DNA of 64,000 nucleotides from Turneriella sp. (lineage in GTDB: Bacteria > Spirochaetota > Leptospiria > Turneriellales > Turneriellaceae), in assembly GCA_965279515.1 (NCBI GenBank), contig CBDIID010000003.1:800001-864000 (forward strand), in the 5' to 3' direction. Both the position numbers and the translations under genes were made by a program. The notes under the pieces are model-generated. The model was not told where the DNA came from. It saw only the letters and a program-made list of their open reading frames with translations, and did not search any database. Position 1 is the first letter of the stretch. Each line of letters begins with the position of its first letter. Positions 20,482-59,955 of the stretch are shown here, one piece after another.

Positions 20482-20504
20482 ATCTTCGGGTTGCTCAGCA
20501 GGCC

Positions 20505-20602
20505 GCAAAATGTAAAATCACAAGAAAAGTTGCGCGATTTTGTATCCAAAATCGCTCCATAAACGGGCTATCGCCCGCTTTTCTTGGATTTTAGCATTTT
20601 GC
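20505..20602. repeat. long multi-branched inverted-repeat element
   Basis: Arms GCAAAATGTAAAATCACAAGAAAAG / CTTTTCTTGGATTTTAGCATTTTGC enclose two hairpins, both with TATC loops. Confidence 0.7.
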
Positions 20603-20693
20603 TCATCTTAACAGATTAGATTCTCAGCGCCCTGCTGCGCCCCCCACTGGCTTTCGCTCGCCGCATTATGTCACATTGTGTGACTGACGCGCC

Positions 20694-39945: not shown

Positions 39946-40058
39946 AGGCAACCGTTAAGAAACGCGATCTTCGGGCCCGCACGGCCCGAAGCAAAATATG
40001 GGCAGCCCGAAGGGCGCTTTAGGCAACGCGCCCATATTTTGAGCGTTTTAGGTTGCCT
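39946..40058 (-). repeat. long multi-branched inverted-repeat element (CTAAAGCG family)
   Basis: GGCAACC/GGTTGCC outer arms, CTTCGGGCC/GGCCCGAAG hairpin and CAAAATATGGGC/GCCCATATTTTG stem; the minus strand carries CTAAAGCG-hairpin-CTGC. Confidence 0.7.
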
Positions 40059-40899
40059 GACGTATCTCGATAACGATCATGTCGCCGGTCAGATGCCAAC
40101 GTGCCAGCTTATCGGCGATTTTTTTTCGCAGGCGGTAAGAAAAACCCGCACCTTCCTTCGTTGTGAAACCCGAGCCATAAGAAAATGCGCCTGAGATTTT
40201 AAGCCCGCATTTAGCGGCAAGCACCGAGAGGGATTTTTTATTGAAATAAAAAACATGTTCGGGCACGTTTAAATAACGCCAGGCTTTGCCATAACGGCGG
40301 GCGAAATAGCCGGTATTGCAGGTGCTGAGATAGATTTTTCCGCCGGGTGCAAGCAGCGTACGCATCTTCGTTAAGAATGCTTCAGCCTGAGGCAGATGTT
40401 CGAGCGTCGCCCAGTGGGTAATGAGATCGTATTTCTGTGCCTGAAAATCGTGGGAGAGGAAATCCGCTTCTTCAAGATTGCGGCCCGCGGCGCGGCCGGC
40501 TTCGATCATTTCATGCGCGATATCCATACCCAGTGCCTGCCAGCCCCGCGCCGCAAAATAGGCGACGGCATGGCCGGCGGCGCAACCGACTTCGAGCAGG
40601 CGCTTTTCGGATGGAAGGTTTTTCTCCCAGGGGAAAAAATCCAGATCTCTTAGATTCTTTTCCAGCGTCGAAACGACAGAGCGGTAGATTTTATCTGACG
40701 TATAGTCGGCATAGCCCCGGTCACTGCGCTCTTTAAAATATTCGTTTTGGTAAAGGGCGGTCAGTTCTGCGGGCGATGGCAGGGGTTGAATCTGCCATAC
40801 AGTGCAGAGCATGCAGCGGTGGATTAAAAAAGTTTTGCCGGCGGCACTTTTTTTTTCCAGATGCGGCACCGTGGCGCCGCCGCACAGGGCACAGTTCAC
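40048..40899 (-). CDS. class I SAM-dependent methyltransferase with N-terminal Zn-ribbon
   Basis: CALC...CMLC, LLEVGCAAG, LEHL, PEHVFYF. Confidence 0.9.
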   Translation of the reverse strand: MNCALCGGATVPHLEKKSAAGKTFLIHRCMLCTVWQIQPLPSPAELTALYQNEYFKERSDRGYADYTSDKIYRSVVSTLEKNLRDLDFFPWEKNLPSEKRLLEVGCAAGHAVAYFAARGWQALGMDIAHEMIEAGRAAGRNLEEADFLSHDFQAQKYDLITHWATLEHLPQAEAFLTKMRTLLAPGGKIYLSTCNTGYFARRYGKAWRYLNVPEHVFYFNKKSLSVLAAKCGLKISGAFSYGSGFTTKEGAGFSYRLRKKIADKLARWHLTGDMIVIEIRQAT

Positions 40900-53320: not shown

Positions 53321-53466
53321 CCCAGAATTCATGAAGTTGGTCAAACCGAATCAGAGTTATCTACTTTCGCAGAATCCGGAAGCCTCGCGGTTTGGAAGAC
53401 CAAACCACTGCTAAAGCGGCCGAGGCGGCCTGCTTCCGGATTATGCGCAACTTTATGAATTCTGGG
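53321..53466 (+). repeat. long multi-branched inverted-repeat element (CTAAAGCG family, copy A)
   Basis: 19-bp outer stem, 16-bp inner stem, and junction AAGC-CTCG-hairpin-CTGCTAAAGCG-hairpin-CTGCTT. Confidence 0.75.
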
Positions 53467-53515
53467 GCCCCTTTATACCGTTGACGTGCTCCCCGGCGCA
53501 GAAAATCATTCCACA

Positions 53516-53857
53516 ATGGCGACTGAAATTTCACCCGAGAAACTTTCCGAACTCAAGGCTTTGGGCGGCGATGCCCTCATCACCAAGCTGCTGAGTAAGT
53601 TTGTCGAAAATTCGGCAAAACTGATCGCCGATGCGAAAACCGCCGTCGCCGCCGGCGATGCGCCAAAAGTCGATTATTGTGTGCACACCCTCAAAGGCAG
53701 CGCCATGAGTCTGGGCCTCGGTTCCATGAGTGCAATCCTCATCGATCTCAATGTGCGCACCAAGGCGCAGAATCTCGCCAATGTGCAGGGCGATCTCGAC
53801 CAGCTTGAAAAGCTGCTCGAAGAAGTGAAAGCCTATAAGGCCGCGACTTTTCCGTAG
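53516..53857 (+). CDS. stand-alone Hpt (histidine phosphotransfer) domain protein
   Basis: VHTLKGSAMSLG phospho-acceptor motif; four-helix-bundle size. Confidence 0.92.
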   Translation: MATEISPEKLSELKALGGDALITKLLSKFVENSAKLIADAKTAVAAGDAPKVDYCVHTLKGSAMSLGLGSMSAILIDLNVRTKAQNLANVQGDLDQLEKLLEEVKAYKAATFP

Positions 53858-53991
53858 CAGGCTCCGGAAAAACTCCCGAAAAAGCGAAAAGCCTCGTCGT
53901 TTGCAAAGCCAAACGACTGCTAAAGCGCGTCGTCGCTTGGTAGCCAAGCGACTTTGCTGCTTTTCGCTTTTTCGGTTCCGAGAGCCTGCTA
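53854..53991 (+). repeat. long multi-branched inverted-repeat element (CTAAAGCG family, copy B)
   Basis: TAGCAGGCTC/GAGCCTGCTA, perfect 17-bp CCGAAAAAGCGAAAAGC stem, and the same junction sequences as copy A. Confidence 0.75.
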
Positions 53992-54019
53992 GCAGTTTCC
54001 TTTTTCAGGAAACTGCTAG
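53989..54019. terminator. strong hairpin between convergent genes
   Basis: CTAGCAGTTTCCT-TTTTC-AGGAAACTGCTAG, containing the creatininase stop codon. Confidence 0.55.
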
Positions 54020-59851: not shown

Positions 59852-59955
59852 TAGGTAAGTTCTAAAAAAGTCATGCGCGGCCAAGGCCGCGCGAGGGAAT
59901 GCGCGCTCGCGAGTACGCAAGCGCTCCTAATTTTGCCTTTTTCAGAACTTACTTA
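59852..59955. repeat. long inverted-repeat element overlapping the rnr stop
   Basis: TAGGTAAGTTCTAAAAAAG / CTTTTTCAGAACTTACTTA arms enclose GCGCGGCC-AA-GGCCGCGC. Confidence 0.6.

Follow-up and report, generated by a model that had tools for sequence, protein, structure and literature searches.

Two MITE-like insertions beside a stand-alone Hpt gene of Turneriella share a branched core that probably folds as DNA

MITEs are usually regarded as two transposase-binding ends placed around filler. REP/REPIN elements are thought to act as single-stranded DNA, and IS5-family insertion sequences of the DUF772 type have a target preference for YTAR. Prokaryotic MITEs, as portrayed in the available text of a review (PMC10969869) and a census (PMC11602168), are short, non-coding, and mostly intergenic, with terminal inverted repeats. 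For the ISKra4 group (p-MULT 4), the accessible part of PMC3942029 describes insertion targeted to promoters, duplications of 8-9 bp, and intermediates that are probably circular. A further relevant structure is the d(GCGNAGC) mini-hairpin, which the available portion of PMC13037366 describes as unusually stable as DNA, with a related RNA hairpin much less stable, and as a feature of the N4 promoter and of sites where single strands are primed.

The repeats described here, two of which (copies A and B) flank a stand-alone Hpt gene in a 64,000-nucleotide stretch of a Turneriella sp. genome (the window; genome G000), resemble the prokaryotic MITEs of the available text of PMC10969869 and PMC11602168 in being short, non-coding, and mostly intergenic, in their inverted repeats, flanking direct repeats, and stable fold, and in having ends in common with autonomous insertion sequences. 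They differ from the MITEs in those portions of text in that one branched core is common to MITEs of two unrelated transposase families, in the near-fixed letters of its junctions, and in signs that it folds as DNA on one strand. A constrained, strand-specific core common to two transposase families is what sets the repeats apart from those accounts. A literature search, covering sources other than the supplementary list of PMC11602168, which may include these repeats, found no description of the element.

The Hpt gene (53516-53857, forward strand) encodes a 113-aa Hpt domain protein and lies between a divergent gene for a penicillin-binding protein and a convergent creatininase-family gene. 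In two sequencing runs presumed to be RNA, reads cover no more than a piece of Hpt, too little to bear on expression. A promoter-like site of the sigma70 type (53481-53509, forward strand) is located downstream of copy A, which is 14 nt away from the -35 box. Copy A is a MITE-like element at 53321-53466, its folded strand probably the reverse one. It is composed of an outer inverted repeat (53321-53339/53448-53466), a 28-nt unpaired segment, a 16-bp closing stem (53368-53383/53432-53447), and the conserved branched core (53380-53435, reverse strand). The junction is ordered as closing stem, CTC, hairpin 53387-53408, T, GCTAAAGC, hairpin 53418-53430, and T.

Copy B is a 158-bp MITE at 53858-54015, again with the reverse strand as the likely folded one, bounded by IS5-family ends at 53858-53872 and 54001-54015. 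Its closing stem (53876-53892/53959-53975) encloses hairpins at 53896-53917 and 53927-53957, the conserved core spans 53889-53962 on the reverse strand with the second hairpin in its long form, and a 3' hairpin follows at 53993-54015. The target duplication consists of GTAG on the left (53854-53857) and CTAG on the right (54016-54019), which contain the stop codons of Hpt and of its convergent neighbour, the creatininase-family gene, respectively. Every motif that the initial annotation reported for copies A and B is present where it was placed. Its core for copy B also stands; the borders it drew do not, since the true span is 53858-54015, takes in the extra 3' hairpin, and leaves the GTAG outside. 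The folding z-scores of the two copies are -7.9 to -9.8, with none of 200 shuffles folding equally well. Both fold about equally on the two strands, each far above shuffles, which counts against a strand-specific reading.

Throughout the family the core runs from a closing stem ending in GC through CTC, hairpin 1 (8-9 bp, with G at its first and C at its last position), T, GCTAAAGC, a hairpin 2 whose length varies, and T back into the closing stem. In an alignment of 34 copies, 91.6% of cells are paired and two-sided change is found at 20 of 27 pairs. The covariation score of this alignment, 0.598 as against 0.158 when shuffled and at most 0.143 when slid, is inflated by kinship among the copies. 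Terminal loops are free to vary, and the junction letters are near-fixed: when the genome was scanned with no constraint beyond the geometry of the stems and a single G-C closing pair, all 25 matches had identical junction letters. One A-T pair of hairpin 1 is invariant in 144/144 distinct copies, and an A-tract lies on the closing stem 10-12 bp outward. The 8-nt linker could itself pair as a 2-bp mini-hairpin; its two pairs never covary among the 34 copies, so the core is compatible with a three-way or a four-way junction. The conserved junction with exchanged helices that had been proposed from copies A and B alone is therefore upheld by strong stem covariation around near-fixed letters. Its assignment to no known class agrees with Rfam, where no family matched: nothing reached the gathering score in the window, only weak miRNA-type matches appeared there by E-value, and five further loci gave none.

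A covariance model built from the 34 copies and used for genome searches matches 32 dispersed copies in this genome, A and B included, as had been expected of a real element. These are non-coding and roughly 100-200 bp long. There are 50 copies in G011 and 22 in G002, and the count per genome ranges from 4 to 50. The family is found in 17 of 121 genomes of the class, namely all 14 of the genus (Turneriella-type) and three others of the order. None of 86 genomes of family f8 was matched by the model, nor, under strict filters, any of 150 other genomes of the wider phylum. A pattern scan of about half of GTDB found the full fold at 40 of 103 loci, 39 of them in spirochaete-labelled records; the remaining locus is an 830-bp contig in another bin, with flanks that resemble a congener locus. 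Among viral contigs, 5 strict-pattern matches lacked the fold and it was found in 0/120 looser-pattern matches, and plasmids gave no match.

The dispersed copies are insertions. At the Hpt orthologues both copies are absent in 13/13 congeners, and the TTGAC upstream of the gene is kept at 12 of 13 orthologous loci. Elsewhere, 42 of 97 loci of other genomes could be mapped to this one, and 40 of the 42 sites are empty. The 98 flanking frames scanned belong to unrelated genes; none encodes a transposase or an RT, and no partner recurs among them. Copies A and B entered the locus as two separate insertions of one dispersed, non-coding repeat family, and the Hpt gene is a bystander of the elements. 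The cassette that the same-direction arrangement had suggested is contradicted by the differing ends of A and B and by an Hpt gene that keeps its neighbours without the elements in 13/13 congeners. The other option raised at the time, a non-autonomous mobile element, agrees with dispersal, inverted repeats shared with insertion sequences, target duplications, and empty orthologous sites, all of which are features of MITEs. In two congeners these intergenic gaps contain palindromic repeats of other kinds, upstream of Hpt at L059 and downstream of it at L069, which indicates that the gaps collect repeats.

Copy B resembles IS5-family insertion sequences in its 15-18-bp ends and its 4-bp YTAG-type flanks. 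Counted from the tip, its ends match those of L345, a 1,252-bp IS5-family element of the same genome flanked by TTAG/TTAG, at 16/18 and 14/18 positions. The transposase of L345 is split over two frames, and its best match, NF033581, comes in two pieces of 127.6 and 94.4 bits against a cut-off of 140. The GTAG/CTAG flanks of copy B agree in three of four letters. Among 28 IS5-type copies the right flank is YTAR in 19 and TA is present on both sides in 13, with identical 4-bp flanks in 8 only; YTAR-type flanks are seen at IS5-family elements here too. Copy B differs from such elements in having no transposase and in that each of its ends in addition pairs with an inverted copy of itself inside the element, and the autonomous elements for their part lack the core. 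This genome also contains five near-identical 1,241-bp IS5-family elements with CTAG duplications (contig C3, 120620-121873, and four other sites), the product of a recent burst.

The GTAG at the start of copy B had been taken as a hint of RAYT-associated REPs. It is the target duplication of copy B, a left-flank GTAG occurs in that one copy of the 28, and no Y1 locus has the element. REP/REPIN elements with RAYT are likewise dispersed palindromic repeats, but the repeats here have neither a GTAG tag nor a flanked Y1 gene and do have target duplications and DDE-type ends. A search for a RAYT/TnpA gene flanked by the elements, as had been advised, found Y1 transposase genes flanked by the repeat at 0 of 23 loci. 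More broadly, none of 87 loci with Y1, IS91/Y2, IS1595-like, DUF772, ISKra4-like, or RT genes contains the core, the best score being 21.9 bits. On either side of the Y1 (RAYT-like) genes of the genus (L030, L070-L091) lie perfect palindromes that have only A and T at the centre and outer arms that vary.

A second type of end, 22 bp long and starting GGGCGCG, is found on other MITEs with the core. L403, a 1,459-bp element from a metagenome scan, has the same 22-bp ends around an ISKra4-like transposase, and the MITE ends match them with 0-7 mismatches. The transposase reaches 191.3 bits against NF033572, for which the cut-off is 205, in a frame from which the first 79 positions of the model are missing. 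Flanking duplications of 8-9 bp occur in 16 of 25 ISKra4-type MITEs (13/17 of those with the core), compared with 0.15% for mismatched flanks. An outward TTGAC lies within 45 nt of 12/26 ISKra4-type copies; the comparison figures are 2/28 for IS5-type copies and 6% for the genome (p 0.0015). This excess agrees with the promoter targeting and circular intermediates described in the accessible part of PMC3942029. With the ISKra4 group as described there, the repeats have in common inverted repeats in the range of 18-39 bp, 8-9-bp duplications, insertion by sigmaA-type promoters, and the proposed circular intermediate. They differ in that promoter distances here spread over 11-39 nt, where that text has them fixed at 13-17. 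Further differences are that the repeats are non-autonomous, that the autonomous L403 has no core, and that the ends of copy A are unlike those of L403.

Copy A has the ISKra4-type layout of outer stem, 28-nt unpaired segment, and closing stem. Its outer arms have no sister in G000 or 13 congeners, no target duplication was recognised, and no partner insertion sequence was found for it; a query with L403 found no ISKra4-like gene in G000. Many older copies have other outer stems, and more than two transposase families may be involved. Most copies are old, and a general search for duplications accordingly recovered no more than 14 among the 144 copies, a number that includes chance cases. At another locus (L402), a 479-aa transposase-like frame, possibly IS1380-like, lies directly inside an ISKra4-type end.

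Mismatches within stems bear on which strand folds. On the strand used in the initial annotation, isolated stem mismatches are A.C in 55 cases and G.T in 10 (35 vs 10 as position classes, p 0.00025), counts that overstate independence, as the 144 distinct copies are related. An A.C excess on that strand means wobble pairs on the reverse strand, and the substitution spectra of three young families contain no matching bias (G>A/C>T of 12/7, 11/18, and 16/15). Loops tell the same strands apart. Among 93 hairpins, GNA triloops form 30 distinct hairpins on the reverse strand vs 6 on the forward strand, and 40/41 minimal second hairpins are GC-GNA-GC on the reverse strand, the form of the DNA mini-hairpins described in the available portion of PMC13037366. 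Tetraloops on the reverse strand are GNYA in 7 and GNRA in 6 of 111. Counting against a DNA-loop reading, most second hairpins of 12-13 nt lack GNA.

The strand preference is independent of genes. With genes called from a custom codon model, the contexts of the 144 copies are 53 co-directional, 47 convergent, and 27 divergent, with 2 in genes and 15 unscored. The orientation to transcription in the 53 co-directional contexts is 26 vs 27, without bias, and replichore bias is likewise absent (17 vs 15). With neither a transcription nor a replication bias, the strand asymmetry seems to stem from the life cycle of the element itself. The fold is probably one of DNA, on the reverse strand, opposite to that of the first reading.

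The core is not required for movement. It can be dispensed with, since two 74-bp derivatives that have the same ends without it are found at different sites, and the duplication of one of them is perfect. Hairpin-2 alleles recur across outer-frame types, and the orthologous copies L039 and L199 have the same frame with different hairpin-2 alleles, which suggests exchange between dispersed copies. In rsmG, an in-frame copy occupies the same loop in G000 (L439) and G011 (L440), with an unchanged junction and several compensated pairs; the loop is short in 9 other congeners. The kept junction and compensated stems of the rsmG copies also fit selection in place.

Two more copies had been indicated in the window near 20.5 and 40.0 kb, and they fared unequally. 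The first (20488-20645) is a diverged, sister-type element with near-identical junction geometry and other linker letters (31.4 bits, E 3.9e-6), one of four such elements in this genome, the others being at about 262068, 3285901, and 3392691 of contig C3. The second (39946-40060) is probably a decayed copy in reverse orientation that has lost one hairpin (15.2 bits, E 0.1, a weak score). The ISKra4-ended MITEs of 201-203 bp (L377, L378, L380, L382, L384, L385) have the same junction geometry with other linker letters and score 29-42 bits. In L381, part of the junction is missing.

For the two copies at the Hpt locus, an account can be given with high confidence. An IS5-family enzyme very probably moved copy B in trans into a target of the YTAG type that two stop codons form, and the insertion of copy A, upstream of the promoter, is older and possibly due to a Mutator-type enzyme. 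For the family as a whole, the chances are about even that the repeats are MITEs with IS5-family or ISKra4-type ends, moved in trans, that share a core folded as single-stranded DNA on the reverse strand. Under such a mechanism, transposases of IS5-family or ISKra4-type insertion sequences would move the non-autonomous repeats in trans. One defined strand would become single-stranded during copy-out circle formation, and the core would fold there. The folded core may then help, for example as a protein-recognised signal for priming or protection, and copies with an intact core would multiply faster whichever transposase lends the ends.

Asymmetric single-strand transfer is described for copy-out transposition in the available part of PMC7780238. 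That the core is kept through an advantage while one strand is single-stranded in copy-out circle formation is plausible at somewhat less than even odds. Against it stands that copy-out is reported for Mutator-type families, with no source for the IS5 family, and that the searches found neither an autonomous element with the core nor a partner protein. A more tentative possibility is that the core is a portable single-stranded DNA signal, read by a host replication protein for priming or protection, that gives a copying advantage to any small transposon and persists by swapping transposase ends. If so, the replicator would be defined by its fold and not by its transposase, and it would persist across a whole spirochaete lineage. 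The core has a 9-of-10 letter likeness to the primer start region of phage G4, but on the apparently unfolded strand, and the G4 origin differs further in having no match to the covariance model at E up to 5. A likeness between the 11-nt core and the end of the tmRNA reading frame is probably due to chance.

Of the alternatives to MITEs with a single-stranded core, one makes the core and closing stem a single-stranded mobile module of their own, with an HUH-type or recombinase enzyme, that acquired insertion-sequence ends secondarily. The presence of one core in many outer frames, the hairpin-2 alleles that are shared across frames and differ between the orthologues L039 and L199, and DNA-type folding on one strand would all follow from it. 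It is nonetheless unlikely: no core lies beside any of 23 Y1, 9 Y2, or 1 RT loci, the RAYT-like genes of the genus have other, simple palindromes, in G000 there is a single Y1 gene and nothing that matches Y2, and young copies moved as whole units with duplications of the insertion-sequence type.

The repeats could also be ordinary MITEs, in which covariation results from template-switch repair of palindromes together with exchange and common descent alone accounts for the shared junction. Core-less derivatives at separate sites and exchanged hairpin alleles are what such a history would leave, other MITE types of the genome are branched too, and prokaryotic MITEs commonly fold according to the available text of PMC10969869. 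This alternative is unlikely in view of terminal loops that vary freely where junction letters do not, a strand asymmetry that has no counterpart among the substitutions of young families, and a sister family that keeps the geometry with other letters.

It is improbable that the host adopted the core as a DNA signal, such as a site for a nucleoid or replication protein, selected in place. The rsmG copies of G000 and G011, which keep the junction including third codon positions while their stems are compensated, and the presence of the family in all 14 genomes of the genus would suit a host function, but the 40 of 42 empty orthologous sites, the range of 4 to 50 copies per genome, and the absence of replichore bias speak against one.

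A structured RNA, either a processing or stability element or a ribozyme as first suggested, could account for the fixed junction, the covarying stems, and the nearness of most copies to gene ends, with G.U wobble as suited to RNA as to DNA, but is improbable given the 26 to 27 orientation in co-directional gene pairs, the loops of DNA type (GNA triloops, GNYA tetraloops) on the other strand from the one proposed, the absence of an Rfam match, and a nearness to gene ends that YTAG and promoter targeting explain.

In these repeats the filler of the MITE is the stable part and the ends change. A stable core with changing ends points to selection acting on the element while it is single-stranded, a state for which DDE transposition of double-stranded DNA has no obvious need. 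Should the core prove to act when copy-out circles form, the repeats would offer a short natural substrate for the protection and priming of a displaced strand. They also hold a warning for searches for RNA motifs, since a covarying junction with fixed letters can be the DNA fold of a mobile repeat. Mismatch type, GNA loops, and orientation to genes are counts that separate a DNA fold from RNA.

Two other repeat populations were observed in the same genome. A third type of branched repeat, with terminal inverted repeats of 13-16 bp, is located at about 59860-59950 of the window and at four more places in G000, and is probably another MITE family. On contig C3, the regions at about 97-158 kb and 3.73-3.78 Mb contain many long repeats that resemble gene-cassette arrays.
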